Of a stretch of DNA of 64,000 nt, positions 1 through 50,185 are shown in pieces. Position numbers and translations under genes: made by a program. The DNA comes from a virus: positions 1 through 64,000 of the IMG/VR virus record IMGVR_UViG_3300036790_000468; one strand, 5' to 3'. A model generated the notes under the pieces. The model was not told where the DNA came from. It worked only from the letters and a program-made list of their open reading frames with translations, and did not search any database. Each line of letters starts with the position of its first letter. Position 1 is the first letter of the stretch.

Positions 1-400
1 GGCGGTACACCTGGCCGTCCACCTGGCCGTGCACCTGGCCTTGCACCTGGCCTTGCACCTGGCCTTGCACCTGGCCGTGCACCTGGCCGTCCACCTGGCC
101 TTGCACCTGGCCGTACACCTGGCCGTGCACCTGGCCTTGCACCTGGCCGTACACCTGGCCGTACACCTGGTCGCCCACCTGGCCGTACACCTGGTCGCCC
201 ACCTGGCCGTACACCTGGCGGTACACCTGGCCTTGCACCTGGCCGTGCACCTGGCCGTGCACCTGGCCTTGCACCTGGCCGTGCACCTGGCCGTGCACCT
301 GGCGGTACACCTGGCGGTACACCTGGCCGTCCACCTGGTCGCCCACCTGGTCGCCCACCTGGCCGTACACCTGGCCGTACACCTGGCCGTCCACCTGGCC
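1..400. repeat. 12-bp tandem repeat (CACCTGGCCGTG consensus), about 33 copies in the window
   Basis: Directly visible; runs off the left edge. Confidence 0.97.
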
Positions 401-649
401 GCGATGCCGCAGCCCATCAGCCACGATCTCCGGGGCGACCGCCTGCCCGACCACCCCGGCCCACGGCGAGCCGAGCCAGATCATGAACCGGGGCGGCTCC
501 AGACCCGCAGCACGGTACGCGGCACGCACGCCTCCCTCGGCCGCCGACCGGTCGGCGCGCTCGGTGGACAGGCCGTGCGCAATCCACTCGTCGCGCACGA
601 CGGAAAGGAGGGTTTCCTGCTCGGGCGTCAGTGTGGTGAGCTTCGTCAT
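2..649 (-). CDS. DUF6745-like phage protein with (G/D/R)QV(Y/H/D/Q/G) repeats, 3'-truncated by the window edge
   Basis: Manual translation from ATG 649 (RBS GAGGA): MTKLTTLTPEQETLLSVVRDEWIAHGLSTERADRSAAEGGVRAAYRAAGLEPPRFMIWLGSPW...GQVDGQVY. Not in the ORF track because its stop lies outside the window. Confidence 0.8.
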   Translation of the reverse strand, partial: MTKLTTLTPEQETLLSVVRDEWIAHGLSTERADRSAAEGGVRAAYRAAGLEPPRFMIWLGSPWAGVVGQAVAPEIVADGLRHRGQVDGQVYGQVYGQVGDQVGDQVDGQVYRQVYRQVHGQVHGQVQGQVHGQVHGQVQGQVYRQVYGQVGDQVYGQVGDQVYGQVYGQVQGQVHGQVYGQVQGQVDGQVHGQVQGQVQGQVQGQVHGQVDGQVYR

Positions 650-738: not shown

Positions 739-1083
739 TCACTCGGCGACGAACCCGCGACGCTCGCCACCCGAACCGGGCGGCCGCTGGTCATCGAGCT
801 CGAGAGCGAGCTCGAGCAGATGCGTCACCTCCGGTTCGTGCGCGGCGAGCATCGCGGCCACGTACGGGCCGGAGTCGCGGCACTGCGCCCAGACGGCATC
901 GACGTGCGCGTGCCGGGCTTCGGCCGCGTCGAGCGCGCCTTTCGCGGCACCGGGGTCACGCCGCGGCAACAGCGCGGGCGCGGCCTGATCGGCGCGGGCC
1001 GACGCACGCCCCAGACCCAGGCCGAGCAGGACGATGAAGGTCACGACGACGGCGACAGCCAGCCAGAACCAGGCGACGATCAC
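739..1083 (-). CDS. Hypothetical protein with N-terminal TM helix
   Basis: Hydrophobic N-terminus; start overlaps the stop of the upstream gene. Confidence 0.6.
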   Translation of the reverse strand: MIVAWFWLAVAVVVTFIVLLGLGLGRASARADQAAPALLPRRDPGAAKGALDAAEARHAHVDAVWAQCRDSGPYVAAMLAAHEPEVTHLLELALELDDQRPPGSGGERRGFVAE

Positions 1084-2240
1084 GACGCAGCCCCCTGACG
1101 CACCAGACCCAGCGCCCGCGCCCGCAGATCAGCAGCAGCCAACAGGGCATCCGTGACCTGCTGCGAAAGCCACCCCGACTGCGCCAGCACCGCGGCGATC
1201 ACCCCGTCGAGCTCCTCACCGGACTCCGCGGCCTCGATCCGGTCCCGCAGATCCGACTCCGCACGCTCCACCTGCGAGGGCTCGCCGGGCGCGAGACGCT
1301 GAGCCTCGGCCTGGGCCGCAGACGCCTGCTCCGCCTCGGACGGTGCGCCGGCGAACGGCGCCAGCCCGGACAGGATCTCGATCAGCTTCACGGCCTGCGC
1401 GTGCGAGAGCTTCGTGGTCGACGGGACGTCCACGCCGAGGAAGTAGCGCACCCCGGCCAGCTTGCGGTCGCGCTGCGCCGAGGTGACACCGCACTTCTCC
1501 AGGAACAGCTTCGAGATCGCGATGTGCTGGCCCTTGGTCGAGTCCGGCCCTGGTGCGGGCTGCTCCCACTCCGTGTTGTCCTGCGGGCCGCGCTGGGCAC
1601 GCGACTGCGCCGGCTTCGGCTCCCGAACCGTGGGCGCGGGTGCGGCCTCCTGCTGCTCGTCGAGCTCCCCGGACGTCACCGGCGCATCCGCCGGAATCTC
1701 GCCCAACTCCGCCACGCTCACCGCGAGCGGGTGGCCCGCCGTCGCAGCCACGACCGGCAGCGCGTCCTGGCGCCGCGTCTTGCTGTAGAGCGACAGGCCG
1801 AATTGATCGCCGAGGTCGATCGCGCAGCGCTTCAACGCCTGCGAGTACGCCGTCTTCAGCGCGTTGTCGTGCGCGTCGCCGATCGAGGGCTGATTGACCG
1901 ACTCACCCACGGCCGCGCCGTCGAAGTACCCGAGCTCGTTGCCCCAGACGTCACGCAGGTGCAGCCGCAGGCCCACCCGGTAGACGGCGGTGGTGCGGAA
2001 CTTGCCCTCCTCCTTCTGCGGCACGATCCGCTCGTGCACCAGCGTCTCGCTGCGGCACTCCTCGGACCATCCGGCGAACCCGAAGATGCGCGTCAGCCAC
2101 CGGCGCACGTCCCAGGCCTCGAGGTGGTCGTTGCCCTTCTGCTGGCGTACGCGCGCCTCGGAGATCATTCGGAGCAGCAGTTCCACCTGCTCGACGGTCA
2201 GGCCGCGCCGAGGCGTGGCCGCGAGGGTCTCAGTGCTCAC
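1080..2240 (-). CDS. Rad52/Rad22-family (Sak-like) single-strand annealing protein
   Basis: HLEAWDVRRWLTRIFGFAGWS and AHDNALKTAYSQALKRCAIDLGDQFGLSLY motifs. Confidence 0.88.
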   Translation of the reverse strand: MSTETLAATPRRGLTVEQVELLLRMISEARVRQQKGNDHLEAWDVRRWLTRIFGFAGWSEECRSETLVHERIVPQKEEGKFRTTAVYRVGLRLHLRDVWGNELGYFDGAAVGESVNQPSIGDAHDNALKTAYSQALKRCAIDLGDQFGLSLYSKTRRQDALPVVAATAGHPLAVSVAELGEIPADAPVTSGELDEQQEAAPAPTVREPKPAQSRAQRGPQDNTEWEQPAPGPDSTKGQHIAISKLFLEKCGVTSAQRDRKLAGVRYFLGVDVPSTTKLSHAQAVKLIEILSGLAPFAGAPSEAEQASAAQAEAQRLAPGEPSQVERAESDLRDRIEAAESGEELDGVIAAVLAQSGWLSQQVTDALLAAADLRARALGLVRQGAAS

Positions 2241-2740
2241 CGCTGCTCACCGCCGATCAGGCCGTCAGCGCGGTCCATGTCCCGGGCCGCGTCCGCCTGC
2301 TCGTCGCACTCGCCGCAGTCCGCCGAGTCGTGCACGCCCGCGTCGGCCGCCACCTGCTCGAGCGCGTCCCGGGAGACCACGAGTGCCTGGTAGTCCTCGG
2401 TCACGATCGAGCCGTCGGCCATCGCGAACTGCATCCACCGCCGCCCGCGACCAGTGGCCGGATGCCACTCGGCGTGCGGCACCGCCTCGTCGATCAGCAC
2501 CCACCGGTCGGCGAGCAGCAGCTCGTCGCCAGCGGTCAGCTCGCGCGCCGGGCGCGTACTCCCGTCCCCGGACGGCACGGCCAGCTCGGGCTCGAGCTCC
2601 ACCGCGGCCTCCATCGGCGGCTCGGCCACCGGCGTCGGCTCCACCTTCACCGCGGCCGGTGCCGGGGTCCGCATCCACGGCAGGTACCGGCCCGCGGCCT
2701 CGCGGGTGGCCTGCGACAGGCGCCTACGCGTAGGTCCCAT
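2237..2740 (-). CDS. Hypothetical phage early protein
   Basis: Coupled operon; C-terminal HxxxCxxC motif. Confidence 0.55.
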   Translation of the reverse strand: MGPTRRRLSQATREAAGRYLPWMRTPAPAAVKVEPTPVAEPPMEAAVELEPELAVPSGDGSTRPARELTAGDELLLADRWVLIDEAVPHAEWHPATGRGRRWMQFAMADGSIVTEDYQALVVSRDALEQVAADAGVHDSADCGECDEQADAARDMDRADGLIGGEQR

Positions 2741-3398
2741 TGCGGAGCACCTCCCCCGCGGTGATCGAGGCGTGCACAGCGGTCCGGACCGCGGGGTCCG
2801 AGTACGTCGAGTCGACCGGCGTGACGACCTGGCGGGCATCGTCGTACTGCTCGTCAGCGCCTTCGAGGCAGTCGGGGCACGACACCTCGTTGTCGTCGTG
2901 GGTGATCCGGCCGTCCGCAGCGCCACAGACCGCGTGTCCGGTGTCGCGGCCCGACTGCGTGAACTGCATCATGTGCGAGATCCGGAGAGCGCCGTTCAGG
3001 ATGTGCACCGACTCGCCGACGACACGGACTTCCTGCCGGTCGGCCGCCATCGCCTCGGCGTACGCGTCCGCGTCGATGATCGCCAGCACCTTGATCGGCA
3101 CCTCGGCGACCTTGATGCGCGTCCACAGGGACATCTGCCAACCCGACGGCTGGCTCCCCTGGGCGTACGGCGTGTGCATCTCGACCGTGCCGCCCGCGTA
3201 CGCGTGGACGGCCTCGATCGCGGCGCCCGCGTCCTTGTGCTGCGTGTAGGCCGTGCACTCCCAGCCCGCATCATGCACCGACCGGCGCAGTTCCACCCGG
3301 TCGAGCTGCGGCAGGTCCAGGTCCGCGCCCACGCCCAGGAAGTCCCACAGCTCGGCCGTCAGCGTGTCCAGCGTCTTCGTGCTCGTCGTCGCGGTCAC
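2724..3398 (-). CDS. Hypothetical phage early protein
   Basis: GTGA overlap with the upstream gene; C-terminal Cys motif. Confidence 0.6.
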   Translation of the reverse strand: MTATTSTKTLDTLTAELWDFLGVGADLDLPQLDRVELRRSVHDAGWECTAYTQHKDAGAAIEAVHAYAGGTVEMHTPYAQGSQPSGWQMSLWTRIKVAEVPIKVLAIIDADAYAEAMAADRQEVRVVGESVHILNGALRISHMMQFTQSGRDTGHAVCGAADGRITHDDNEVSCPDCLEGADEQYDDARQVVTPVDSTYSDPAVRTAVHASITAGEVLRNGTYA

Positions 3399-3844
3399 AG
3401 TGCCGCCCCCTCGGTCTCCTCGGCGCTCCAGGCCTCCACGGCCGCGCACGGATGGTCGGTGCACAGGTAGATCGAGCCCGCGGGCAGCGGCGCAGTCTCC
3501 GTGCACCCGGTAGCGCAGCAGCGGATCATCACGAACCCGGCCGCGGACAGGTACTGGGCCTGTGCGGCCCGCTCGATCCAGCCGACGATCACCGCCACGT
3601 ACTCCGGCTGGATCTCGGCCAGGACCCCCGCGACCGAGCGCTCACGGGGCCCGAGCACCACCCGGGCCCCGTGCAGCGCGCCCAAGATCATGCCCTCGTT
3701 GATGTGCTCGAGGGCGCGCATGGAGTCGTCCGGGCGGGTCAGGCGCGCGGCCTTGTAGACGGGTTCCGCGTCCATGGCGAGCGCGACGGAGTCGGGGTAG
3801 GGGCCGTGGACGGGCGCGGGGTGGTGCTCGACGACCGCGGTCAC
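3395..3844 (-). CDS. Hypothetical phage early protein
   Basis: Coupled starts and stops; Cys-rich C-terminus. Confidence 0.6.
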   Translation of the reverse strand: MTAVVEHHPAPVHGPYPDSVALAMDAEPVYKAARLTRPDDSMRALEHINEGMILGALHGARVVLGPRERSVAGVLAEIQPEYVAVIVGWIERAAQAQYLSAAGFVMIRCCATGCTETAPLPAGSIYLCTDHPCAAVEAWSAEETEGAAL

Positions 3845-4416
3845 GAGGCCACCTCGGCATCCTGCTGCGACGCGTTCGGGTCCAGGTCCGCCAACAGCGG
3901 GTCGAACGCCGGTGCGGCCGCGTGCGCACGCCGCCGGATCTCCTCCCGCACCTGCGCGGCCAGACCCACCAGCTCGGCGGTCCCGTTCTGGACGTGCGCC
4001 GTCACCATCCGCGCCTCATCCCCGCGCGCCGAAGTGAACCGGCGGGCCGGCCCGATCAGCTGGTGCAGGCGCTGCGAGTCGCGCTCGAGCATCTTCCGGG
4101 AGACCCCGAACAGGCCGCGCACCCGCGCCTGCGCCTCGTCGAACGCCGCGTCGACCTCGAGGAACGCGTCCGCCAACTGCTGCTGCGGCACATACGCCAC
4201 GGTCGTCCGGACCGCGCGCTTCGGGGCCTGCGGGACGCGCAGACCCAGCGTCCGCGACCCGCGCGCCGACTGCACCGCCAACACCGGCAACGGCACCGAC
4301 GGGCCCGGCTGCGGCTCGCGCAACACGGCCAGCCACTGCGGCGCGCCCTCGAGGCGGTTGCCCTCCTCGTCGATCACCCGGCGGTGTCGCCGGACACTGC
4401 TAGTACGATGGAACAT
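3841..4416 (-). CDS. Hypothetical phage protein
   Basis: RBS GAAGGAG before ATG 4416. Confidence 0.55.
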   Translation of the reverse strand: MFHRTSSVRRHRRVIDEEGNRLEGAPQWLAVLREPQPGPSVPLPVLAVQSARGSRTLGLRVPQAPKRAVRTTVAYVPQQQLADAFLEVDAAFDEAQARVRGLFGVSRKMLERDSQRLHQLIGPARRFTSARGDEARMVTAHVQNGTAELVGLAAQVREEIRRRAHAAAPAFDPLLADLDPNASQQDAEVAS

Positions 4417-4480
4417 GGACTTCTCCTTCAGGTAGTGGTCCATCCGCGCTCCCTGACTCCAGATCAGGGGGCGCGCTTCG

Positions 4481-4678
4481 CTACTGGGACTTCGAGGGCT
4501 GCGGCGCAGCGGCGAACAGGCGGCGTACCAGCGCGATCGCCTCCGGCGACGGCGGCGGCGCTGCCGCGACCCTCGCTTTGATATCGGCCACGACCTCGGG
4601 CCCGAGACGCGCAAGGAAGTACTCGTCCGAGTACGGCTCGACGTCGGCCCGCACCTCGGCGCTCACCTCGGCGCTCAC
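4481..4678 (-). CDS. Small hypothetical protein
   Basis: GTGA overlap with the antirepressor stop. Confidence 0.5.
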   Translation of the reverse strand: MSAEVSAEVRADVEPYSDEYFLARLGPEVVADIKARVAAAPPPSPEAIALVRRLFAAAPQPSKSQ

Positions 4679-5469
4679 GCCGCGACTCCCTCGGACATCA
4701 GCGCCGGCAGGCTCGCCGTGCCGCCGAGCAGCGCGTGCAGCTCGCCGAGGCCCTTGACCGTGATGCGCACCTGCTGCGTGGCGATGTCCTCGTCGCGCTT
4801 GGGGTGCTCGTAGGTGCTGGCCCGGATGGCGACGCGGCCGCACTGGATGTGGTGCTGGTAGGGGACGTTGTGCCGGTCGATCCACCCGATGTGCCGCAGG
4901 TAGGCGAACAGGCGCTTCTGGCCGCTCGAGATGCGCGGGTCGCGGCAGAGGATCTGAGCGGCCTCGCGGACGGCGTAGTCGCCAGACGCGTCGGCCATCT
5001 CGTCCCAGGCGCGGGCCGCGGGGGCGAGCTCGATCACCTGGAACTCGGCGCGGTGCGCCCGCTCCTCGGCGGCGCGCTTCTCGAGGATGAGGCGGACGTT
5101 GTGCTGCGCCAGCTCGAGCTCGTCAGGCGCCTGCGCCGGCAGTGAATACGAGCCGGTCCTGCGAATCGCCGGGAGCACATCGTGCGTGACCCAGCGCTGG
5201 AACTCGCGGGCGCCGATCGCGTTGCTGCGCATGATCAGCGCGTAGAGGCCCGGCTCGCTGACGACGCTCGCGAGCTGCTCGCCGCCAGGGGTACTCACCA
5301 GATGAGTACCCTTCTCGTCCTCGTCGAGGATGCGCACGGCGTTGAAGGCGTCGCGGTAGCCGAGGATCACGGCGACGTCGGAGCCGACGAACCAGGGCTC
5401 GCCATCGATGACGACCGTCCGGACCGTCTGGCCGGTCGTCGGGAAGGTGAAGGGGATGATCTCGGTCAC
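4675..5469 (-). CDS. Phage antirepressor (BRO-N + KilAC/ANT domains)
   Basis: VRTVVIDGEPWFVGSDVAVILGY, FQRWVTHDVLPAIRRTGSY, and C-terminal QVRITVKGL. Confidence 0.92.
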   Translation of the reverse strand: MTEIIPFTFPTTGQTVRTVVIDGEPWFVGSDVAVILGYRDAFNAVRILDEDEKGTHLVSTPGGEQLASVVSEPGLYALIMRSNAIGAREFQRWVTHDVLPAIRRTGSYSLPAQAPDELELAQHNVRLILEKRAAEERAHRAEFQVIELAPAARAWDEMADASGDYAVREAAQILCRDPRISSGQKRLFAYLRHIGWIDRHNVPYQHHIQCGRVAIRASTYEHPKRDEDIATQQVRITVKGLGELHALLGGTASLPALMSEGVAA

Positions 5470-5693
5470 GCGTCCCCCTTGATTGTGATTGCTTCGACGG
5501 GGACCTCGAGGGCTTCGGCGATGCGGGAGAGCGTGCGTGCGCTCGCACCACGGCGACCGAGTTCGATCTGCGAGAGGAACCCGCGGTTGAGGCCCGTTTG
5601 CCGTGAGAGGCCGCGCAGGCCTATCCGTTTGCCCTGTCGGATCGCCCGGATGGCGCTGCGGTTTGCCCTGGCGACATCCCGGTTTGCTGTCAT
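5466..5693 (-). CDS. Cro-like XRE HTH protein
   Basis: LRGLSRQTGLNRGFLSQIELG HTH; divergent from CI. Confidence 0.85.
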   Translation of the reverse strand: MTANRDVARANRSAIRAIRQGKRIGLRGLSRQTGLNRGFLSQIELGRRGASARTLSRIAEALEVPVEAITIKGDA

Positions 5694-5850
5694 AGCCCCA
5701 CCGTAGAGCAAACCATTTGCCCTCGCAACCCCCCACGTGAGCAAACCGGGGCGTGCGCGGGGGTGCGAAGTGAAAACCGCGCGCTGACTAAAAAGGGCGG
5801 TGTGCTCCCGAACGCTCCTGGCGTTTACTTCTAGGGCGTGCGGTTTGCTA
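5660..5850. promoter_or_regulatory. CI/Cro switch: leftward promoter TTGCGA-N17-TACGGT (leaderless cro) with repeated GCAAACC/GGTTTGC operator-like motifs
   Basis: -35 at 5723-5728 and -10 at 5700-5705 on the minus strand; motif copies near 5660, 5681, 5708, 5740 and 5842. Confidence 0.6.
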
Positions 5851-6825: not shown

Positions 6826-8253
6826 CTAGTACTTCCACTCCAGGTCATACCGCCCCGGCCGAATCCCCCGGACGCCCTTCCCAGCCGGGTTCATCCACGG
6901 CACCACCAGCGGCCTGATAACCGAACGCTGCCACGTCAGATCCTCCCCGCCCCCAATCCACTTCCCCCGCGCGCCCGGACCCGCGAGCTGTCGCAGCACC
7001 AGCGGCACCGACGCCGACTGCGCCCGCGACCGCGCATCCTCGATCAACGGAAGCAGCTGCTGCTCGAGCGAAGCCAGCGAAGCCGCCGACAGCACGACAC
7101 GCCCGTTCTCCCACCGGCCGGCCAGCGCACGCGCCTCCGCCAACTGCGCCTCGAGGGCCTGCGCCTGCGCCAGGGCCGCGGCCGTCCCGTCATCCGCGTG
7201 CGCGTTCGCGAGAGCCGCCGCGAACTCCGGGCGTTCCACATACTCGAGGAGAGCCAACGTGACGATCTCGTCGAGCACGGGCACCTGAATCGACGTCTTG
7301 AAGCACGCCACACAGATATACGCCCACTTGTCCGGCGCATACGAGCGGCGCGGCCTCGCGATCCCCCTGCACACCGAGCACCGGGCGATCCCCGAGAGCA
7401 GGAACTTCACCGCGTTCCCCTTCGCAGACAGACGCCCCGGATCCGAGAACAGCCGCACACACGCGTAGTACGTCTCCTCATCCAGGATCGGCTCCCACAC
7501 CGCATCCCCAATCACCGTTCCCTGATACTGCCGCTTCCCGATATACGTGGGCTTGCGCAGCAGATCCGGCAGGATCTCCGGCGACCACGGGCGCCCGGTC
7601 GGCCCCGGGATCCCCCGGTCGTTCAGATCCTTCGCGATCCGGTACAGCGACTGGCCGCCCGCCGCACGCCGCGCGATCTCGCGCACCACGGGCGCCTGAG
7701 CGTCGTCCGGGATCTGCTCGAGCAGCGCGCCCGTCCGCTCGTCGTACACGCGCCGGTACCCGTACGGGATGCGCCCGTGCGGCCGCCCACGCTCCGCATT
7801 CAGCCGCACGGTGCGCATGACCCGGTCCCGGATCGCGTCCGCCTCGTCCTCGGCCTGGAGCGCGTTCAGCCCCGTGATGAACCGGTCGGTGCGCCGGGTC
7901 ATGTCGTAGACGGTGCCGTTGTAGCACAGCACCACCCTGTGCTTGACGCACAGGTCCCGCAGCGTCACATACACCTTCAGGTCCCGGTACGCACGGGAGG
8001 CCTCCCACACCACCAGGACGTCGCACCGGCCGAGCCCGATCTCCTCGAGCATCCGCTCGTAGTCGGTGCGCCTGGACTTGCTATGCCTCGAGGCGCCCTT
8101 GCCCGGGTCGGTGAACCGCTCCACGATCGTCCAGCCCTGGCGTTCGCAGAACCGGGCGTTCTCCAGGTTCTGATCCGCGTTGGCCCGTTCGCTGGCGAGT
8201 CCCTTGACGTCGCGTGAGGTGCGGTCGTACACGAAGGCGCGTAGCTGCTCCAT
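6826..8253 (-). CDS. Large serine recombinase (phage integrase)
   Basis: YDRTS catalytic motif, WEASRAYR, recombinase domain PYGY, Zn ribbon CSVC...CVAC. Confidence 0.95.
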   Translation of the reverse strand: MEQLRAFVYDRTSRDVKGLASERANADQNLENARFCERQGWTIVERFTDPGKGASRHSKSRRTDYERMLEEIGLGRCDVLVVWEASRAYRDLKVYVTLRDLCVKHRVVLCYNGTVYDMTRRTDRFITGLNALQAEDEADAIRDRVMRTVRLNAERGRPHGRIPYGYRRVYDERTGALLEQIPDDAQAPVVREIARRAAGGQSLYRIAKDLNDRGIPGPTGRPWSPEILPDLLRKPTYIGKRQYQGTVIGDAVWEPILDEETYYACVRLFSDPGRLSAKGNAVKFLLSGIARCSVCRGIARPRRSYAPDKWAYICVACFKTSIQVPVLDEIVTLALLEYVERPEFAAALANAHADDGTAAALAQAQALEAQLAEARALAGRWENGRVVLSAASLASLEQQLLPLIEDARSRAQSASVPLVLRQLAGPGARGKWIGGGEDLTWQRSVIRPLVVPWMNPAGKGVRGIRPGRYDLEWKY

Positions 8254-8270
8254 GCCGTGAGGGTAGCGCA

Positions 8271-8326
8271 CACCTTTGCCCCTGTCCCAGGTTCTCGCCA
8301 GAAAAACCCGAGTCAGGGCAAAGGTG
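8271..8326. other. Putative intact attP for the serine integrase
   Basis: 56-bp imperfect palindrome with perfect 11-bp outer arms CACCTTTGCCC/GGGCAAAGGTG immediately upstream of int. Confidence 0.65.
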
Positions 8327-8351
8327 CGCCCAGCCAGTCGACCGGCTCTGA

Positions 8352-9101
8352 TCAGCCCAGCGGGATCTCGTACACCGCGCGATAGTGCGGGGGCAGCACA
8401 ACGTCCGCGGTCTCCAACGGGAGGTCGTCCTGCCAGTAGGTGCGCTGCACCTCGAGGATCGCAATCCCCGCGTGCAGCACGAGCTCCGCCGCCTCAGCCT
8501 CGGTCAACGTCCGCGGCGCAACCTCTTCGGTCACCCGCGTCGGCACATGCCCGATCAGCGCCATCCGGTCCCACACGCCCTTCCCCGCATGCGGACCGGA
8601 CTCCGGCAGCATCACCTCGGTCCCACCAGTGATCGCGAGCGGCTCCCAGGAGACGGACAGGTAGGTCGGCTCCCCGTCGAGCAGGAAAGTGTAGGCGGTG
8701 CGCATGACCCGCGCGCCGGCCTCGATCCTCAGCCGCTCGGCGACGGCCGGCGGGGCCGCGGTGGGCGAGCTGCTCGAGCGCCAACTGCCATCGCGCCTCA
8801 CCGCGGCCATCTCCGCACGCCACGGCGAGCCCGTCCCGGGCTGCTGGTACCAGGAGCGCACCATCCGGGTGACAGCGGGGCGCTCACGCACCCAGGAGCC
8901 CGCGCCGGGTTTCGACACAGTGAGCCCCTCGCGCAGCAGCTGCTCGTGCGCCTTGGCCGCAGTGGCGTTGGCTACCCCGTACTGCTCGCGGAGTGTGGCG
9001 AGGGTAGGCACCTGCTGGCCGGGCGCGAGCACGCCGGAGTAGATCGCCTGACGCAGGTCGTCGACGATCCGCTGATACTGCGGGGTGGCGATGGCTCTCA
9101 C
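8352..9101 (-). CDS. GntR/HutC-family regulator (wHTH + UTRA), KorSA-like
   Basis: YQRIVDDLRQAIYSGVLAPGQQVPT wHTH plus a UTRA-type C-terminus. Confidence 0.92.
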   Translation of the reverse strand: MRAIATPQYQRIVDDLRQAIYSGVLAPGQQVPTLATLREQYGVANATAAKAHEQLLREGLTVSKPGAGSWVRERPAVTRMVRSWYQQPGTGSPWRAEMAAVRRDGSWRSSSSPTAAPPAVAERLRIEAGARVMRTAYTFLLDGEPTYLSVSWEPLAITGGTEVMLPESGPHAGKGVWDRMALIGHVPTRVTEEVAPRTLTEAEAAELVLHAGIAILEVQRTYWQDDLPLETADVVLPPHYRAVYEIPLG

Positions 9102-9137
9102 CTCGTGTCGCGGATTACTCCTGAGGAGAGCTTGACG

Positions 9138-9173
9138 CAGCTATCTAGAGAGCGCAAGCTCTCTAGATAGCTG
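9138..9173. promoter_or_regulatory. Perfect 16-bp inverted repeat, likely GntR operator over divergent promoters
   Basis: CAGCTATCTAGAGAGC-GCAA-GCTCTCTAGATAGCTG directly after TTGACG (9132-9137). Confidence 0.75.
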
Positions 9174-9226
9174 GACTCTACGAATCCGGCCGACTACCAG
9201 CCGCCCGGCACGAGGGCAGGGACCCT

Positions 9227-9595
9227 ATGACCGTCTCCATCACGCTCCCATGCGTGCCCGAATACGTGGCCGTCCTCCGCGCGATCGCAGACCGGCTCTT
9301 CGCCCCCATAGACCGCGGCTACGACGCTGCGCTCGTCACATCCGAACTCGCGGGCAACTCCACCCGCCACTCCCGCTCGCGGCACGGCGGCTCCCTCCAG
9401 GTCTCATTCGAGGTCGGTGAGCACTCGGGACGGATCGAGGTGGTCGATGCGGGCCCCGATGCCGAGCCCGTCCCGTCCTACGAAGCCGACGAGCACGGCC
9501 GTGGCTTGATCCAGATCGTGGACCACGTCGCCGAGAAGTGGGGCCACGACGTGGATGCGGGGCGGCACGTCTGGTGGGCGGAGCTGTCCTGGTGA
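9227..9595 (+). CDS. HATPase_c ATP-binding protein (RsbW/AbaA-like)
   Basis: SELAGNSTRH, VVDAG and EHGRGL boxes. Confidence 0.85.
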   Translation: MTVSITLPCVPEYVAVLRAIADRLFAPIDRGYDAALVTSELAGNSTRHSRSRHGGSLQVSFEVGEHSGRIEVVDAGPDAEPVPSYEADEHGRGLIQIVDHVAEKWGHDVDAGRHVWWAELSW

Positions 9596-9810
9596 CCTAC
9601 CGCAGGATCCGTGGCGCCGAGCACACCGAGGTCACCGACACCGAGGCCACCACCGCATGGTGCTCGACGCCGCACGACTGCCGCATGGGACAGGACGGCG
9701 GCAGCTTCATCATCTTCCAGCGCGACGCCCGCGGCTACCTGACCAGCCCGACGATCTACAAGCCCGTCAACCAGGGGGACCCCGAATGCGCATCCGACCC
9801 AGACACCTGA
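9592..9810 (+). CDS. Hypothetical protein
   Basis: GTGA overlap with the upstream stop. Confidence 0.45.
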   Translation: MTYRRIRGAEHTEVTDTEATTAWCSTPHDCRMGQDGGSFIIFQRDARGYLTSPTIYKPVNQGDPECASDPDT

Positions 9811-10274
9811 CACCGCTACTCGCCACCACCGCCGTGCTCGCCACCACCGCGGCGGCCTGCGGATCGAGCGGACCCACACCGGCCGAGCACGTCACCACGA
9901 ACATCAGCATCCAGAACCCCGGCTCGGCCAAGAAGTGCACGATGACGCTGCGGATGCTTTCCCCCCAGGACAAGCAGCTGACCGCGAGCTTGACCGTGAC
10001 CTGCGACTTCCCCGTCGCCTCCATGTACACCACCCTCGTCATCCAGGGACGCCCGACCGGCTCCGGCGACACGGCGTGGCAGAACGTGGACGAGCCGGCG
10101 ACCACCGCCGACACCCCGCCGGCGGTCCTCACCTTCACCTACAACTGCGTCACCGGCTACGACTTCCAGGCCTCGGCCTCGATCGACGGCTCCGGCGCGG
10201 ACGGCAGCCCGTTCACCGCGACCCAGACCACTACCCCCCGCTCCTACGGCGCGTCAGAATGTAGCGGGAAGTAG
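9786..10274 (+). CDS. Putative lipoprotein
   Basis: Signal peptide with lipobox AAAC-GSS; paired Cys in a beta-rich body. Confidence 0.7.
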   Translation: MRIRPRHLTPLLATTAVLATTAAACGSSGPTPAEHVTTNISIQNPGSAKKCTMTLRMLSPQDKQLTASLTVTCDFPVASMYTTLVIQGRPTGSGDTAWQNVDEPATTADTPPAVLTFTYNCVTGYDFQASASIDGSGADGSPFTATQTTTPRSYGASECSGK

Positions 10275-10296
10275 CCGCGAGAACGGAGCAGCAGAC

Positions 10297-10629
10297 ATGG
10301 CCCGGTACCGCATCGAAGCCACCTGGGACGACGACGGCGTGCGCCTCCAATACGGCCGGGCCACCCGGATCCCGCCCGAGCACGAGGCCCGCATGCGCGA
10401 ACGCGGGATGCTCGGGCCCGACGACGAGCCCGTCAGCATCCAGCAGCTCGGACAGTCGCACATCACCGACAAGGCGCAGATGACCAACAAACACGTCCGG
10501 CGCACCGCGCTCGCGTGGCTGGCCGAGCACGCCGGCATGACCGACGCCGACTCGTACGAGATGCAGCTCGCCGTCCGCTCACACCTCGAGGCCCTCGGCC
10601 GGCTCGAAGCATCCACCGCAGGACACTGA
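10297..10629 (+). CDS. Hypothetical protein
   Basis: RBS GGAG; same operon. Confidence 0.6.
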   Translation: MARYRIEATWDDDGVRLQYGRATRIPPEHEARMRERGMLGPDDEPVSIQQLGQSHITDKAQMTNKHVRRTALAWLAEHAGMTDADSYEMQLAVRSHLEALGRLEASTAGH

Positions 10630-10643
10630 CCCAGGAAGGCACC

Positions 10644-10844
10644 ATGACGACGCACACCGGCAGCCCCGAGCCGTCCAGCACGACCGGCGATGCCGTCTCC
10701 TCCGCGGTCGGCGACCTGCGCGACGCGCCGATGAGCACGCTGATCGAGGGCCGATCGACCGAGGCTGAAGCCGTGATCGGGCGGGTCCTGGACCTCGAGG
10801 GCTCGGGGTTGTTGACGGTGGCCTCGTTCAACGCGTCGATCTAG
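10644..10844 (+). CDS. FxSxx-COOH-like (FxsA) cyclophane RiPP precursor peptide, orphan
   Basis: 66 aa; leader GDLRDAPMSTL...AVIGRVL; C-terminus VASFNASI; RBS AGGAAGG. Confidence 0.75.
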   Translation: MTTHTGSPEPSSTTGDAVSSAVGDLRDAPMSTLIEGRSTEAEAVIGRVLDLEGSGLLTVASFNASI

Positions 10845-10959
10845 TCGCCAGCAACGCCCGTCCCATCGCGCGGGAGGGGGGTTCGCGTCCCGGCAGTACC
10901 GATCACGGGGCACCAGGTGTACCGTGACTCTCCGTCAGCCGAGCTGAGCAGGGGGATCC

Positions 10960-11292
10960 GTGGCCATCTTGAGAGACCGCTTCCCAGAGTCACCCGGCGC
11001 CGCGTTACGCCGCGCCGAGAGCCTCCGCTTTGACGAGGTCAACCGGCAGATCACGCGCATGCGCACACGACTGAACCTCGGCCTCATCACCGAGGCCCAC
11101 TTCCAGGGCGAGGCCAAGGCGCTCATAGAGTCGCTTGAGGGCTGGGCGCCCCCCGAGCCGCAGGACGCCAGGCCACCCGGCTTCCGGTACCGCTCCTTCA
11201 TCGGCCAGCGCCGTACCCCTGCCGACCCCAGGCCCCCCGCAGACGCCACGGCCCCACGCGTCAATGATGAGCCGTCAGCGCCCACACGATGA
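10960..11292 (+). CDS. Hypothetical protein
   Basis: RBS GGGGGA; upstream TACCGT -10-like hexamer. Confidence 0.5.
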   Translation: MAILRDRFPESPGAALRRAESLRFDEVNRQITRMRTRLNLGLITEAHFQGEAKALIESLEGWAPPEPQDARPPGFRYRSFIGQRRTPADPRPPADATAPRVNDEPSAPTR

Positions 11293-11542
11293 AACCCTCG
11301 GCCGCCGAGAGCACCCCGGACACCCCGATCGCGACCCCGACGGCCTTCGCCACCTTCCGATCCAGGCCGTCGACGCGGCCGGTTAGGCGCGACATGGCGT
11401 CACGCTGATCCCGCTCGGCCTGCGCTGACGTACGGTCCCTCTCGGAGAAAACCATCATCTCCCCCTTCACCGTCGCGAAACCGACCTCCACCGTACGCTG
11501 GAGATCGGCGAGGCGGGCCTCGAGCGGCGATTCCGCACTCAC
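11261..11542 (-). CDS. Lysis-cassette membrane protein (holin-like)
   Basis: Coiled coil plus C-terminal TM, directly after the lysin. Confidence 0.6.
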   Translation of the reverse strand: MSAESPLEARLADLQRTVEVGFATVKGEMMVFSERDRTSAQAERDQRDAMSRLTGRVDGLDRKVAKAVGVAIGVSGVLSAAEGFIVWALTAHH

Positions 11543-11543
11543 G

Positions 11544-12233
11544 TCACACCGCGCTCTTTCCGGTCGCTGCCGCCTGAATCGAGGCGAGCTCGGCCGACGT
11601 GATGTGCGCCTGCTTCACGCCGGCCGCCTGGTACGCCGCGAGCGAAGTCGGGTCGGCGATGTGCCAGAGCAGGCCGCCGGACAGGCCGTAGACGGGGCTC
11701 TCGCCGTTCACGTACAGGATCAGCATCTCTATCTCCTCAGTCGGTGCAGGTGCGGGGACTGGCGCGGGGTCGAGTCCCGGCCAGTAGTCGGCCACCGACG
11801 AGACGTCGTAGCCGGGGTGGTTCGCGTACTGCTTCGCCATCGCGCCGGCCGGGATCGCCGGGTTCCCGTCATACTGCGCGATCCAGTAGTGCGGCGGGCG
11901 CACGTCGTGCGTGGCGAACGCGGAGCGCACCGCCGCCCAGCTCGAGGAGTTGCAGTACACCGACGGGTCCGCGCCGGCCGCGCGGCGCATCAGCACCCAG
12001 TTCACGGCCTCCTCCGGCGTGGCGTCCCCGGTCTCGACATCCAGCACGGACCCGGAGTCCGTCGAGGCGTGCACGGCGATGTGCACGTGGACCGAGTTCG
12101 GGAACAGCGCCCAGTCCGCGGCGGACCAGGCGTAGTCGCCGTCGTCGTAGCCTGCGACGAGCCTGATCGCCGTGGGGATCCGGGCGATACCGGGCGCGTC
12201 CTGGGCGATGCCGTCGAACATGATGCGCGTCAT
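11544..12233 (-). CDS. Endolysin, GH25/DUF1906-like muramidase
   Basis: VLDVETGDA, VYCN, YWIAQYDG and KQY motifs; RBS GAAGGAG. Confidence 0.8.
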   Translation of the reverse strand: MTRIMFDGIAQDAPGIARIPTAIRLVAGYDDGDYAWSAADWALFPNSVHVHIAVHASTDSGSVLDVETGDATPEEAVNWVLMRRAAGADPSVYCNSSSWAAVRSAFATHDVRPPHYWIAQYDGNPAIPAGAMAKQYANHPGYDVSSVADYWPGLDPAPVPAPAPTEEIEMLILYVNGESPVYGLSGGLLWHIADPTSLAAYQAAGVKQAHITSAELASIQAAATGKSAV

Positions 12234-12246
12234 CGGCACTCCTTCA

Positions 12247-12262
12247 TCGAACATCTGTTCGA
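12247..12262. promoter_or_regulatory. LexA (SOS) box at the lysin promoter
   Basis: TCGAAC-ATCT-GTTCGA, a perfect actinobacterial consensus, abutting a minus-strand TACAAT. Confidence 0.8.
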
Positions 12263-15901: not shown

Positions 15902-17098
15902 TCACATCCATGCGTCGGAGTAGGTGATGGTCATGGAGCTGCCGGCATAGTCGGCGCCTGCCAGGACGATGGAGCTGGCCCCGGGTGCCAGGCGCCACCA
16001 GGCGGAAGAGACGTCCGCAGCGATGGGCTGGCCATTGATGGTGGCGACGCGGTTGAGCAGATCGACGACGAGTTGCTCGGTGGCGCTCAGGGTGAGCCCC
16101 GAGAAAGAGATGATCATTCCGCTGGTCTGGTTGTAGAGCGCCGGGCCCGTGATCGGCCCGGTGATCGTCACCAGGGGCCCGGTGCCGAAATTGCCGTTGT
16201 TCGTAGCCATGATCGACGCGGATGCGGCCTGCGCGGGCGGCGTGAGGGGCGGCGTGAGGGGCGGTGTGATCCCGAGCATCTGCCCCGCCGCCGTAGCACT
16301 CTGCGTGTACACGCTCGTGCCGTACTTGCGCGGGTCCGGCGCGATCAGACCGATCGTGAAGATGACGTCGAGCAGCGTTGGATACGACTCGTGCAGCACC
16401 CCAGAACGGCGCACCTGCATCGTCTTGGGTACCGGCTCGTTGTAGACGAACGTCGCCAGCTGGTTCGGCGGCACGCTCGCCTGCAGCAGCGCCCGGGCCG
16501 TGTCGCGCAGCGCCTGCGAAGCGGCTGCCGCGTGCACTGTCACCGTGAGCGGGCGCGGCCCGTAGTATTGCGGGGTCGCATACCCGCCGTGGTCCCCGGC
16601 GCGCTGCACCACGCCGCCCGAGGTAGGCACCCCGTCCAGACCGGTGACGGACTGCACCATCCACGCAGTGCCGTTCGCATCCACCGAACCCAGCGGCACG
16701 CGGTGCGGCCCGTAGGAGAGCGAACCGGTCCAGTACCCGACGTCGGAGGAGCCGGTGGCCGGCCCCACCCCGATGATGATGTTCTCGGTGCCGTACACCG
16801 GCGCCGAACCGGCCGTCACGGCAATCGTCCAGGTGGCCACGTACGTGCCCGGCGCGGCGCCGGACGGGATCTGCCACGCATACGCGTAGAGCCCCACCCC
16901 GCTGCGGTAGACCTGGCCGCCAGTGGGCACCGACGCCCCGACGTAGAGGAACGGGCCTGCGACATCGCTGGACCCGGTGCCGTAGGTGATGTCCAGCTGG
17001 ACGCTGGCCGGGTCGATCAGGACGCCGGAGGGCCCATCCTCGTTGTAGACCGCACACGGCAGCGTGACCGGCTGCCCCGGCAGTGCATAGATCGTCAC
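15902..17098 (-). CDS. Distal tail protein (Dit) with N-terminal extension
   Basis: Follows TMP; GPRPLTVT, LIAPDPRKY, WWRLAPG and YSDAW motifs. Confidence 0.8.
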   Translation of the reverse strand: MTIYALPGQPVTLPCAVYNEDGPSGVLIDPASVQLDITYGTGSSDVAGPFLYVGASVPTGGQVYRSGVGLYAYAWQIPSGAAPGTYVATWTIAVTAGSAPVYGTENIIIGVGPATGSSDVGYWTGSLSYGPHRVPLGSVDANGTAWMVQSVTGLDGVPTSGGVVQRAGDHGGYATPQYYGPRPLTVTVHAAAASQALRDTARALLQASVPPNQLATFVYNEPVPKTMQVRRSGVLHESYPTLLDVIFTIGLIAPDPRKYGTSVYTQSATAAGQMLGITPPLTPPLTPPAQAASASIMATNNGNFGTGPLVTITGPITGPALYNQTSGMIISFSGLTLSATEQLVVDLLNRVATINGQPIAADVSSAWWRLAPGASSIVLAGADYAGSSMTITYSDAWM

Positions 17099-27906: not shown

Positions 27907-28806
27907 TCAGATTCCCGTCGGACGCTCGACGTAGGCCACAGCAAGGGCCTCGGGCCTGGTGAGTTTGGCGCCGTAGACGTGCAGGCCTCGGACGAGGTCG
28001 CCGAAGTCGGTCTGCGCGCGCAGGGCCTCGTTCTCGGCGACCTGGTCGCCGAAGGTGATCGCGGAGTTGTGGCCGGCCTGGATGGCCCACACCCCGGTTC
28101 CGGGGCCGCCGGCGACGGTCTGCACCGTGTTGTTGGACTCGAGGATGACGAAGCCCGCCGCGCGGCCGACCGCGCCGTTCTCGAAGACGACGCCTTCCGC
28201 GCCGTTGGTGCCGGGGAAGGCGATGAACGCCTGTGTCTGGGCGAGCAGGCCCGTCGCCCATGGCGGCAACACCACGTAGCGTCCCTGCTTCGGGACGTTG
28301 TTCTGCGAGAGCAGCACGCCGAGGGGGATGAGGACCTTCAGGTACAGGTCGGCGACGGCGCTCGAGGAGTAGACGCCCGGGGTGAGCGGGGCGCCGGAGG
28401 AGCCGAGCACGTTCGCCGGGGCCACGCCGGTGTACATGGCGGCGATGAACTGGTCCATCTGGTCGGCGAGCTTGTAGTTCGCGCGGTCCTCGAAGAACCC
28501 CTGGAAGTCGCCCATCTGCTGGCGCCGGTCGACGTCGTTGATGATCGTCGCCCAGTACTTGGCCTGGTCGATCTGGAGGGACTGGCCGGCGTCGAGGATC
28601 TGCTGGTAGTTGAGGCCAGCATTGATCACGTAGTTGGAGATGACGGGGTCGCCCATGGACGTGATGTGCAGGACGTCGCCGAGCCGGGCGATCTCGCCCT
28701 CGTAGTCCCGGTTGATCACGTACTGGGAGCCGAAGACGAGGGTCTTCTCCAGGGCCGCGAGCAGGACCTTCGACCATACTTGCGGCTTGTAGTGCAGAAC
28801 AGTCAT
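27907..28806 (-). CDS. Major capsid protein (HK97 fold, P22-coat-like)
   Basis: YKPQVWS, NRDYEGEI, GRAAGF and VRGLHVYGAKLTRPEAL motifs. Confidence 0.9.
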   Translation of the reverse strand: MTVLHYKPQVWSKVLLAALEKTLVFGSQYVINRDYEGEIARLGDVLHITSMGDPVISNYVINAGLNYQQILDAGQSLQIDQAKYWATIINDVDRRQQMGDFQGFFEDRANYKLADQMDQFIAAMYTGVAPANVLGSSGAPLTPGVYSSSAVADLYLKVLIPLGVLLSQNNVPKQGRYVVLPPWATGLLAQTQAFIAFPGTNGAEGVVFENGAVGRAAGFVILESNNTVQTVAGGPGTGVWAIQAGHNSAITFGDQVAENEALRAQTDFGDLVRGLHVYGAKLTRPEALAVAYVERPTGI

Positions 28807-28904
28807 CTGCTCGCCTTCACGGACGGGGGGTGACAAGGGATGCCGTTTCGGCGATCCCGCGTCGTCCCGTTCCGGGGCGGCAGGCGGGTCCTACGGTGGT
28901 GCGG

Positions 28905-29648: not shown

Positions 29649-29957
29649 TCAGTAGCCGGGTGCGGCGTCCATCTGCGCGTCCGGATACGTCGAGTAGCCC
29701 GGGGACGCGTCGAGCACCTCCGGCGACGCGGCCGTCTTGCCGCCGGCCATGGGTGAGATGTTCGACCCGATGCCCTGCGAGCAGTCGTACGGCCCGGCGT
29801 GCCCGGGGACGTTGGAGGGGACGTGCTTGCCTGCGGCCGGCTGGCCGCCGTGGCGCATCGGCGTCGGCTGCTGGCGTACCTGAGACTTGCCCGGCACGGT
29901 GACAGGCTGCTTCGGAGCCGCGGCCGCCTTCGGGGCGCCCTTCTTGGGTGCGGTCAT
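29649..29957 (-). CDS. Hypothetical protein
   Basis: ATGA overlap with the portal stop. Confidence 0.55.
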   Translation of the reverse strand: MTAPKKGAPKAAAAPKQPVTVPGKSQVRQQPTPMRHGGQPAAGKHVPSNVPGHAGPYDCSQGIGSNISPMAGGKTAASPEVLDASPGYSTYPDAQMDAAPGY

Positions 29958-31654
29958 ATCGAGAGCTCCCTACTCGGGTCGGACGCGACGGACGTGTCCG
30001 AGGTGATCTGGACGTCTCCTGCGATCTCGTCGATCTCCTGGCCGATCGTGGCCTCGGAGTCCTGCGGGCCCTGGAGCATGACGCGGGCGCGCCCGAGGAT
30101 GTCGAACGCGGCCTCGTCGCGGATCCGGTCGAGCTCCTCGGTGACCTGGTCGTCCGTCCAGTCCGGGTGCAGCAGCTGGATCATGGTCTGCTTGGACGCG
30201 GCCTGCGCGGTGTTCATCGCGACGATGGTGGTCGAGGTCTCGGAGAGGGACGGCAGGATCATCTCCGGCCACATGATCAGCGGCCGGGCCGGGGTGATCG
30301 GCCGCTTGAACACGGACTTCTCGATCCACTGCAGCGAGTAGAGGGCGTCGCGCAGGCCGGGGCGCCAGTACTGCTGCTTGCGCTTCCCGGTCATCAGGGT
30401 GCGCCGGTCGCGGTCCTCGACCTCGGTCGCGGTCATCGCCACGTTCGTCGACTCCCCGAAGATCTGCCCGGAGTACCCGGCGGAGCGCAGGGTGTCGCCG
30501 AGGATCTGCTTCATCGTGCTCTGATGGTCTTCCCAGCGGATCGCGAACTGGTTCGCGGTGATCGCACTGTCCGCGGTGCCCGACAGCATCTTGAGCGGCA
30601 CGAACACCTCCTTCTCGATGTCCGCGAGCGCGCCCTTCCCGGGCCCGAGGTCGTTGAGGTAGTCCGGGGGTACCATCAGGCGCATCTTGCCGAGCCGGAT
30701 ATCGCGCATCCAGCTCGAGAAAGTTTCGTCGAGGGAGTCCATCAGCCCCTCGATCCCGGCGAAATCGGACCGGCCGAGAGCGGCGGCGTGCCCGAGGTGG
30801 CGCCAGTACCGGTTCGGGCGCATGTTCGGGATGTAGGTGACCGTGGATGCGTCCGGGGCGATGTCCGGGAAGCGGATCGCGTTGTCCGAGTCGAGCGTCG
30901 CGAACAGCGGCTGCAGGTCCGGGTAGTCGCGCAGTCCGACGACGGACCCGAGGGTCTGCTGGTCGCCGACGTACACGGAGTGGTAGACGCTGTTGGTGCG
31001 GATGTCGTGGTGCTCGAGGTGGCGGTGGACCTCGTCGCCGTCGTCGACCAGGACGCGCCAGAACGTCACCTCGGTCAGTTTCCCGGCGCGGAACACCGGG
31101 ACGGCGGCGTCGGCGTGCACGAGCTCGATCCACGGCCGGTCCGACAGGGCCTGGTCGTAGACGGTGCGCAGGTACAGGCCGCCGAGGCCGGCGCACAGGT
31201 CCGCTCCCTCGTGGAGGGTCGAGTGCAGGTCGTCGTCGAACCGCTCCTCACACCAGTCCGCGACCGCGGTGTCGCCGTCTTCGGCCTCGAACTTCGGGCG
31301 TTTGGCGAACAGCAGGTCGGCGGACATGGTGGTGATGTCGGTGGCGAGCGGTATGTGGACCTTGGTGCGCTTCTCGCCAGCCGAGGGTGTGGTGCCCCAG
31401 AACGTGCGGTCGACGGAGCCGAGGAGGCCGCCGCGGTAGGAGCCGGGGCGCGGTTGGCGGATGGACTGTTCGCCGGTGGTGCGGAAGAAGTTCCTGCCGA
31501 CCTGGCTGTTGGCACCGAGGTTCTGGTAGGCCCAGGCGAGTTGGTCGGGTTTGCCGGAGTACCAGGCGGACCATAGGCGCTGGTCGTGGGCGACGGGGTC
31601 CCAGTGCCAGGGTGGCCATGGCTGGTCTGCTGCGTCTGGTCCGGGGAGTGCCAC
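29954..31654 (-). CDS. Portal protein (SPP1 gp6/A118-like)
   Basis: HIPLATDIT..SADLLF, GRSDF, LDETFSSWMRDIRLG, TATEV and LHPDW motifs. Confidence 0.92.
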   Translation of the reverse strand: MALPGPDAADQPWPPWHWDPVAHDQRLWSAWYSGKPDQLAWAYQNLGANSQVGRNFFRTTGEQSIRQPRPGSYRGGLLGSVDRTFWGTTPSAGEKRTKVHIPLATDITTMSADLLFAKRPKFEAEDGDTAVADWCEERFDDDLHSTLHEGADLCAGLGGLYLRTVYDQALSDRPWIELVHADAAVPVFRAGKLTEVTFWRVLVDDGDEVHRHLEHHDIRTNSVYHSVYVGDQQTLGSVVGLRDYPDLQPLFATLDSDNAIRFPDIAPDASTVTYIPNMRPNRYWRHLGHAAALGRSDFAGIEGLMDSLDETFSSWMRDIRLGKMRLMVPPDYLNDLGPGKGALADIEKEVFVPLKMLSGTADSAITANQFAIRWEDHQSTMKQILGDTLRSAGYSGQIFGESTNVAMTATEVEDRDRRTLMTGKRKQQYWRPGLRDALYSLQWIEKSVFKRPITPARPLIMWPEMILPSLSETSTTIVAMNTAQAASKQTMIQLLHPDWTDDQVTEELDRIRDEAAFDILGRARVMLQGPQDSEATIGQEIDEIAGDVQITSDTSVASDPSRELSI

Positions 31655-35634: not shown

Positions 35635-36002
35635 CGGCCACCGGCCCGGGTGAGGTTGCCGATGTGCTCGACGGCGAGGCCGAGTTTCGCCTTCAGGTCG
35701 TCGATCTCCTTGAGGGCGCTGTTGAGCCGCAGTTTCGTGTGGCTGAGTTCTCCGAGCTGGCGCCCGACGATGCGTGTCGCGTCGGCGAGTTCGCGGTTGA
35801 GCCGCTCGACTTCGGCGACGTTGGCGCGATACCGCTCGGAGACGATCGCGAGGGCTTCGGTGTCGTCTTGGATCCGCTTGTTGAGCCGGCCGATCTCGTC
35901 GAGCAGCTCGGCGCGCTGGACGAGCAGTTCGACGCGGGTAACGGTCCAGGGGTCTGTCGCGTGAATCTCGGCGATCCGCTGCCCGCTGATCGGCGCGGTC
36001 AC
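35631..36002 (-). CDS. Coiled-coil hypothetical protein
   Basis: Heptad pattern; coupled. Confidence 0.6.
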   Translation of the reverse strand: MTAPISGQRIAEIHATDPWTVTRVELLVQRAELLDEIGRLNKRIQDDTEALAIVSERYRANVAEVERLNRELADATRIVGRQLGELSHTKLRLNSALKEIDDLKAKLGLAVEHIGNLTRAGGR

Positions 36003-36397: not shown

Positions 36398-36648
36398 GGC
36401 TGATTCCTGTCGGTGTCGGGGGTGGTTCGCGGGTCGCTGACGAGCCAGTATCCGCGCAGCCCTCGGTGGTTGTTGTGGCTGATCTTCAGGCCGAAGACGA
36501 CCTCGGTGGCGGGATCGTCGGCGCAGGTGACGACGGTGCAGTAGGCGTGCCGGGTGTCCGTGCGCTCGATGCGGATGGTGCGGCCCTTGTTGCCGGTGTG
36601 GGTGTCGGCCCAGATCTGGCCGCGGCGGACGCCGTCGGGGGCGTTCAT
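36394..36648 (-). CDS. Hypothetical protein (SH3-like, GQIWAD motif)
   Basis: VRRGQIWADT...GRTIRI. Confidence 0.55.
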   Translation of the reverse strand: MNAPDGVRRGQIWADTHTGNKGRTIRIERTDTRHAYCTVVTCADDPATEVVFGLKISHNNHRGLRGYWLVSDPRTTPDTDRNQP

Positions 36649-50180: not shown

Positions 50181-50185
50181 GGAGC

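Follow-up and report, generated by a model that had tools for sequence, protein, structure and literature searches.

FxsA precursors, classified as FxSxx-COOH peptides (TIGR04268; PF27839), are the closest described relatives of the phage-encoded peptide analyzed here. In the passages of PMC7159879 on these loci, FxSxx peptides, a radical SAM/SPASM enzyme and an HExxH protein form part of actinobacterial conflict systems that contain TIR and NTPase-TPR proteins, in agreement with the background given in the first-pass annotation of this DNA. The linkage of phenylalanine to the serine two positions downstream by FxsB, which had been named there as well, is found in the cyclophane passages of PMC11002830, where the FxsB-family enzyme MscB is described to connect C4 of Phe with C-beta of Ser two residues on. 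According to the same passages, HaaB and ScaB naturally join C2 of His to C-beta of Ala two residues on. The corresponding passages of PMC11499958 describe that a Lys-to-Ala precursor variant was converted by HtkB in trace only and that HaaB rejects an exchange of Ala to Arg. HExxH partners of cyclophane synthases elsewhere are presented as alpha-ketoglutarate-dependent hydroxylases and not as peptidases in the relevant passages of PMC12636437. In passages of a 2026 preprint, FxsC is described as an active TIR protein and FxsT as a ParA-inactive-TIR protein, and the modified peptide is proposed either to be antiviral itself or to signal alarm (bioRxiv 10.64898/2026.10.19.760177). A role of Fxs loci in immunity is thus a prediction. 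Within the FxsA/FxsB, FxSxx-COOH and triceptide literature that was searched, we found no description of phage-encoded FxsA-type peptides.

A peptide gene in the accessory region of a temperate phage

The window, i.e. the whole stretch of 64,000 bases that was analyzed, is the first half of a virus record of 127,504 bases in IMG/VR. The peptide gene consists of 66 codons and a stop codon and starts with ATG, 14 bases past the stop of the upstream ORF (stop at 10629); its product MTTHTGSPEP...RVLDLEGSGLLTVASFNASI has the C-terminus LLTVASFNASI and is acidic, with a net charge of –6 (Table 1). Direct reading of 10633–10844 gave AGGAAGG, cacc and ATG at the 5' end and GCC TCG TTC AAC GCG TCG ATC TAG at the 3' end, and the description in the first-pass annotation of a 66-aa ORF with a ribosome-binding site, an FxsA-like leader and a VASFNASI end was thereby borne out.

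Table 1. Positions of the peptide gene, its sequence elements and surrounding phage genes in the window.
Feature	Position	Strand	Evidence or remark
Large serine integrase, one border of the accessory region	6826..8271	-	Resolvase and Recombinase domains
Upstream 110-aa ORF, no family	10297..10629	+	No match in Pfam, NCBIfam, PHROG or PADLOC; no counterpart in the second-phage locus
Putative Shine-Dalgarno-like AGGAAGG, 4 bases 5' of the ATG	10633..10639	+	Sequence reading
FxsA-like peptide gene, FNA[ST][IL]-COOH clade	10644..10844 (including stop)	+	TIGR04268, GC3, homologue clusters
Leader motif DLRDAPMSTL, residues 24-33	10713..10742	+	Canonical FxSxx-COOH peptide P0043 has PDLRDTPLGD
Highly conserved C-terminal block IGRVLDLEGSGLLTVASFNASI, residues 45-66	10776..10841	+	Alignment of 38 clade sequences
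Terminal pentapeptide F62-N63-A64-S65-I66	10827..10841	+	Ala64 codon GCG at 10833-10835
Downstream 110-aa ORF, no family	10960..11292	+	No match in the same four libraries; no counterpart in the second-phage locus
Lysis cassette, other border of the accessory region	11261..12254	-	Holin-like 11261-11542, lysin 11544-12254
Dit-like tail protein	15902-17098		
Major head protein	27907-28836		
Portal	29954-31654		At most 38.5% identity to portals of Streptomyces, Micromonospora and Gordonia phages
Large terminase	33378-34640		

Chance ORFs are frequent in this DNA of approximately 70% G+C, with 65 ORFs of 30 aa or more touching the 6 kb between 8000 and 14000, and a scan of 8900–11700 returned 0 promoter-like or terminator-like sites. 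The peptide ORF might accordingly be regarded as no gene at all. However, its G+C content by codon position is 0.58/0.57/0.94, which is the coding signature of a genome with approximately 70% G+C. Over the last 21 codons, comparison with the homologue in a second phage (see below) revealed 9 identical codons, 10 synonymous and 2 non-synonymous changes; one Ser codon belongs to the TCN box in one phage and to the AGY box in the other, and the Ala codon changed from GCG to GCT. Because of the GC3 of 0.94, the 37 homologue clusters and the excess of synonymous changes in the core, the ORF is a real gene under selection, and a chance origin, which the conservation pattern already contradicts, is hardly credible. 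Folding of the spacer 3' of the gene was no better than that of shuffled sequences (z 0.09). No RNA run is listed among the sequencing runs holding the stretch, and the one run that holds it completely is labelled as soil metagenome and may represent the sample of origin.

Terminase, portal, head, tail, lysin and integrase genes were all found, in line with the earlier description of the gene as a phage-borne orphan, and the record is devoid of a maturase. The lysis cassette was recognized by phrog_5225 (E 2e-7) and a weak Glyco_hydro_25 match below the cut-off (E 9e-4). A gene for a GntR/UTRA regulator lies on the same side of the accessory region as the serine integrase. The peptide gene is found at a distance of 2.4 kb from the integrase, and its strand is not that of the integrase, lysis and structural genes but the opposite one. 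Its strand is shared between 9227 and 11292 by an anti-sigma-like gene with a HATPase_c_2 domain (phrog_12354, 'transcriptional regulator'), a lipoprotein-like ORF whose product includes ...LATTAAACGSSG and the two 110-aa ORFs of Table 1. These five genes possibly form an accessory operon that is expressed in the lysogen, between the integrase and lysis genes.

Left of the serine integrase, 1080–5736 on the minus strand encode a recombinase of the Rad52/22 family (386 aa) and a Bro-N/KilAC antirepressor, so phage DNA is present on both sides of the integrase. A region that resembles a second lysogeny module extends from 50129 to 54350 and comprises an integrase of the tyrosine type with an N-terminal SAM-like domain, a protein with an FtsK-gamma domain, an ORF of the Flavoprotein family and a 406-aa HTH_31 protein. 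Integrases, lysins and tail modules are each present twice in the complete record of 127.5 kb, and so is an 871-base repeat, whose copies are 99.2% identical (35959–36829 and 122513–123383). The ends of the record overlap as well, with 99.2% identity between bases 1–133 and the last 133 bases (window 1–401; record 127285–127504), inside a 12-base tandem array of CACCTGGCCGTG x 32.8. In this layout, the record resembles a pair of phages connected through the shared repeat, be it as a co-integrate or by an assembly join; if so, one phage of approximately 41 kb would carry the serine integrase and the peptide gene, and the other would be approximately 86 kb long.

Relationship to FxsA and the alanine clade

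The sole family match of the peptide was the NCBIfam model TIGR04268 (FxSxx-COOH), to which residues 24–66 aligned on profile positions 2–44 of 44, i.e. 43 residues against as many positions, with the C-terminus as the anchor (E 1.3e-4). The scoring proposed in the first-pass annotation thus yielded an end-to-end alignment, but the 22.2 bits obtained are below the curated cut-off of 28 bits; a six-frame search gave 21.6 bits for the peptide. No match was obtained in Pfam (in a library lacking PF27839), PHROGs and PADLOC, and a profile search of the PDB with the peptide produced chance matches only (E 0.18 and 0.84). Formal FxSxx-COOH membership fails on three features, namely the curated score, the serine and the adjacency to FxsB.

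A direct comparison was possible with P0043, a canonical FxSxx-COOH peptide of 53 aa from a protein search at E ≤ 10, which ends in VAAFNSGL, passes TIGR04268 with 30.4 bits and has a precomputed Pfam match to PF27839. Alignment of the clade profile to P0043 with hhalign gave a probability of 96% and an E value of 2.3e-9 over 49 gapless columns including DLRDxPL, with the canonical side of this leader and profile comparison being this one sequence; the result was unchanged when all 38 clade sequences were used. The 9-mer PDLRDTPLG is identical in P0043 and the clade members P0007 and P0020. Ala64 aligns to Ser51 of P0043, and Phe and Asn at positions –5 and –4 are common to both peptides. The motif is located at the extreme C-terminus with F62 at –5, and the last position of TIGR04268 falls on the last residue of the peptide. 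The ESM Atlas clusters nearest to two clade members were all FxSxx-COOH families of Actinomycetota, with scores of 0.84–0.87, which we treat as a lead only. With the SjiA subfamily (NF040585), the FXSXX-COOH superfamily is shared by name; this model had no match in either phage record at E ≤ 1, nor did it match the peptide, and P0043 touches it weakly with 18.2 bits. Judged from these alignments, the peptide is very probably a divergent homologue of FxsA.

Homologues of the peptide were found in 37 clusters of a collection of 5.8 billion proteins, including the window copy and the copy of the second phage, with lengths of 57–96 aa, mostly around 60 aa. Together with one extra cluster member, these make up the 38 clade sequences. 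A search against 1.84 billion cluster representatives yielded 8 homologues of small size. Four long proteins in this representative search (P0006, P0010, P0011 and P0012) were set aside; sequence reading covered P0006 and P0012, and these tandem-repeat proteins were rejected as homologues because weak stretches had been summed. As P0006 reached E values down to 3e-9 against the 66-aa query through such summed stretches, phmmer matches composed of multiple stretches should be regarded with caution.

Phe, Asn and Ala of the terminal motif are invariant in all 38 sequences, and the consensus C-terminus of the clade is RVLDLEANGLLTVASFNASI-COOH. Most members (31 of 38) end in FNASI, followed by FNATI (3/38), FNASL (2/38), FNAAI (1/38) and FNASL with three extra residues (1/38), so that the sequence stops at the motif in 37 of 38. 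The mean share of rows with the commonest residue is 0.88 for residues 45–66, 0.64 for residues 17–34, where the leader motif lies, and 0.35 for residues 1–16; within the leader, D24 is kept in 37/38, L25 in 36/38 and L33 in 36/38. The clade resembles FxsA/FxSxx-COOH precursors in the size of approximately 60 aa, the DLRDxPL leader, Phe at –5, Asn at –4 and the C-terminal location of the motif. In contrast to these precursors, all 38 members have Ala instead of Ser at –3, the clade has its own nearly invariant block RVLDLEANGLLTVAS, the peptide scores below the cut-off, and neither phage record has an FxsB, HExxH, TIR or TPR gene next to the peptide gene. P0043 differs strongly from the clade in the stretch that separates the leader from the last eight residues, and the C-terminal block of approximately 20 residues is the clade's own.

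The alanine marks a separate conserved lineage ending in FNA[ST][IL]-COOH, with Ala in place of the acceptor Ser throughout, and it is this alanine clade that is new. The first-pass annotation had described a change of Ser to Ala in the core. This is correct relative to the family name and the position of the canonical Ser, but the change was not made in this phage, given that the entire clade carries Ala.

The departure of the C-terminal block from the canonical one and the TIGR04268 score below the cut-off would also be compatible with a small, acidic, helical phage protein that regulates or inhibits some other target and whose likeness to FxsA reflects remote ancestry or convergence. The structure predicted by AlphaFold2 from the 38-row alignment, with two helices at residues 30–54 and 56–65, points in the same direction. 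However, the model has a pLDDT of 63.8 and a pTM of 0.27, a low confidence that fits an unstructured peptide. The family match is moreover gapless and anchored at the end, it includes the leader motif as well as F-N at –5/–4, and in nearly all members the motif has stayed at the very C-terminus. We consider such a function outside the Fxs context distinctly improbable.

An orphan gene in two barely related actinophages

Neither TIGR04269 (FxsB) nor PF04055 (radical SAM) matched anywhere in the whole record of 127,504 bases or in the 72.6-kb record of the second phage. The models TIGR04267 (HExxH), NF040586 (FxSxx-TPR) and PF13676 (TIR_2) had no match in either record, and the same was observed for TIGR04276 (FxsC C-terminal), for which the negative result is weak since the model matched no control genome. 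The earlier statement that the window contains no radical SAM, FxsC or FxsT gene can thereby be extended to six Fxs-related families and the whole record, with the same reservation for TIGR04276.

The second virus record (G001) has a length of 72,563 bases, is 94% complete according to CheckV and encodes a clade member of 67 aa. There, the peptide gene follows 11 bases after a Ro60/TROVE-vWA gene and is located between genes for tRNA-Gly and tRNA-Met. The Ro60/TROVE-vWA gene encodes a protein of 551 aa and is flanked by tRNA-Thr, tRNA-Gly and tRNA-Met (7872–10330 of the 20-kb locus L003), which makes the locus a phage Ro60 module surrounded by tRNA genes. Among 11 proteins encoded between 6.8 and 13.6 kb of the window, the peptide alone has a counterpart in this locus. 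The two phage records have 10 of 131 ORFs in common, with 27–52% identity, and no nucleotide match. Because only the peptide is common to both loci and the phages are barely related, the peptide gene moves as a single-gene cassette between actinophages. It corresponds to a moron in being solitary, outside the core modules and without a shared neighbour across the two phages. The peptide is hence a single-gene accessory cassette of temperate actinophages that encode no maturase, with gene context covering 2 of the 38 clade members.

Apart from the two phage records, all clade members but one from NCBI originate from metagenome assemblies, and most of the contigs are shorter than 16 kb. Longer contigs carry P0032 (250 kb), P0003 (43 kb) and the NCBI member P0042 (23.5 kb). 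When 185,579 species, each represented by one genome, were scanned with two patterns, 240 and 41 pattern matches were obtained, with 0 confirmed relatives; these genome scans were pattern-based, and the second pattern fits 30 of 38 clade members, so that a common cellular counterpart should have shown up. In GenBank phages, neither megablast with 6500–31000 nor tblastn with the peptide at E ≤ 1 gave a match. A tblastn search of plasmids (E ≤ 10) returned two haloarchaeal matches only, which were dismissed as chance. In JGI metagenome contigs, the clade pattern yielded 39 stretches with 0 relatives, and a DNA pattern of the leader yielded 8 stretches, 0 of them real. The leader DNA pattern detected 11 stretches in viral contigs, of which only that on the contig of the second phage record was real, and an alignment led by the canonical peptide gave 23 stretches with 0 confirmed in viral contigs.

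These searches bear on the question whether the FNA peptides could be ordinary precursors of an Fxs-like or HExxH-hydroxylase locus in unsampled bacteria, with the phage copies being recent cargo that has no special role. Since the context of only two members is covered, and one further member resides on the 250-kb contig and another is from NCBI, part of the clade could be cellular; the members on the 250-kb contig and the 23.5-kb NCBI contig could belong to cellular loci with a maturase. Against an ordinary cellular subfamily speaks the result for the 185,579 species genomes, obtained with a pattern that most of the clade fits. In addition, two barely related phages hold the core under purifying selection, and cargo without a role would be expected to decay, which counts against a mere passenger. 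We therefore regard this passenger scenario as quite unlikely.

Possible action through host Fxs systems

The reading that we favor, with a probability of roughly 40%, is that of an orphan FxsA-type peptide that acts through the Fxs system of the host, probably as an interfering look-alike. Beyond homology, orphan status, conservation and phage localization, every step is inferred. As the phage carries only the peptide, it would be usable only through host proteins. The leader motif in common with canonical FxsA makes a plausible handle for host FxsB, and since the core and not the leader is most constrained, the core would have to contact something specific. The combination of host-only use, shared leader and constrained core favors entry into the host Fxs pathway and its perturbation. 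In mechanistic terms, the FxsA-type leader (DLRDxPL...L) would allow host FxsB or an associated Fxs component to bind the phage peptide, and the invariant core would then fill the site intended for the host peptide. The likeliest outcome would be interference, in that production or sensing of the mature host peptide is lowered or altered. As a consequence, the TIR/ParA-STAND suicide or alarm response, which itself is predicted for Fxs loci, may be blunted. Among the points against interference, all 38 clade members, the peptide included, remain below the TIGR04268 cut-off, with E ≤ 1 reached by 13 of 38, the SjiA model has no match, gene context covers 2 of the 38 members, the genome scans relied on patterns, and the C-terminal block of approximately 20 residues is unlike that of P0043. 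The last of these points could reflect a different partner altogether.

The main rival of interference is productive maturation in trans. Host FxsB, or a variant tuned to Ala, would crosslink Phe62 to C-beta of Ala64, and the matured peptide would have a function of its own during lysogeny or infection, for example in signalling, in exclusion or as an agonist of the Fxs sensor. The peptide has a Phe-Asn-Ala motif, and Ala at the third motif position is the acceptor of HaaB and ScaB in the passages of PMC11002830. By description, the triceptide precursors of the His-Ala-Ala type (HaaA/HaaB, ScaA/ScaB; passages of PMC11002830 and PMC11499958) share the aromatic-x-Ala motif, whereas their aromatic residue is His instead of Phe and they adjoin their own enzyme. 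Invariance of F, N and A in the whole clade is expected of a modified core, and the accessory position between the integrase and lysis genes on the opposite strand is a frequent site of lysogen-expressed genes. On the other hand, a Phe-x-Ala cyclophane or an FxsB acting on Ala does not appear in the cyclophane passages of PMC11002830 and PMC11499958, cyclophane enzymes are described as selective at that position in the latter, and the pattern scans of 185,579 species genomes gave no cellular precursor of the FNA type. On balance, maturation in trans seems possible but somewhat unlikely.

As HaaB and ScaB naturally crosslink an Ala at +2, the presence of this residue does not imply an inert core, and in our analysis the alanine does not decide between a decoy and maturation in trans. 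The first-pass annotation had linked the alanine to a possible decoy, with maturation in trans by host FxsB as the alternative. The selectivity of cyclophane enzymes at this position, as described for HtkB in PMC11499958, agrees with this view, but the passages on HaaB and ScaB in PMC11002830 show that Ala alone does not make a dead substrate. A more specific version of interference assumes a phage-restricted offshoot of FxsA, in which Ser was fixed as Ala and a leader-competent but non-productive substrate blocks host FxsB or the Fxs system; this would amount to an anti-defence strategy by mimicry of a RiPP precursor, directed against the TIR/ParA-STAND suicide or alarm systems of filamentous actinomycetes. 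In this specific form, we consider interference unlikely.

In Fxs loci, the pathway to a cyclophane peptide is accompanied by TIR and ParA/STAND proteins, and these loci are predicted suicide or alarm systems of multicellular actinomycetes. To our knowledge, nobody has shown how the peptide acts in these loci. Phages in which the peptide gene stands alone point to the peptide as control point of the Fxs system, and a phage clade in which Ala is fixed represents a natural experiment on the part of the crosslink in signaling and in subversion by phages. If the clade should turn out to be a plain cellular subfamily, it would be a modest extension of the FxsA family, with Phe-x-Ala as a possible new cyclophane motif.
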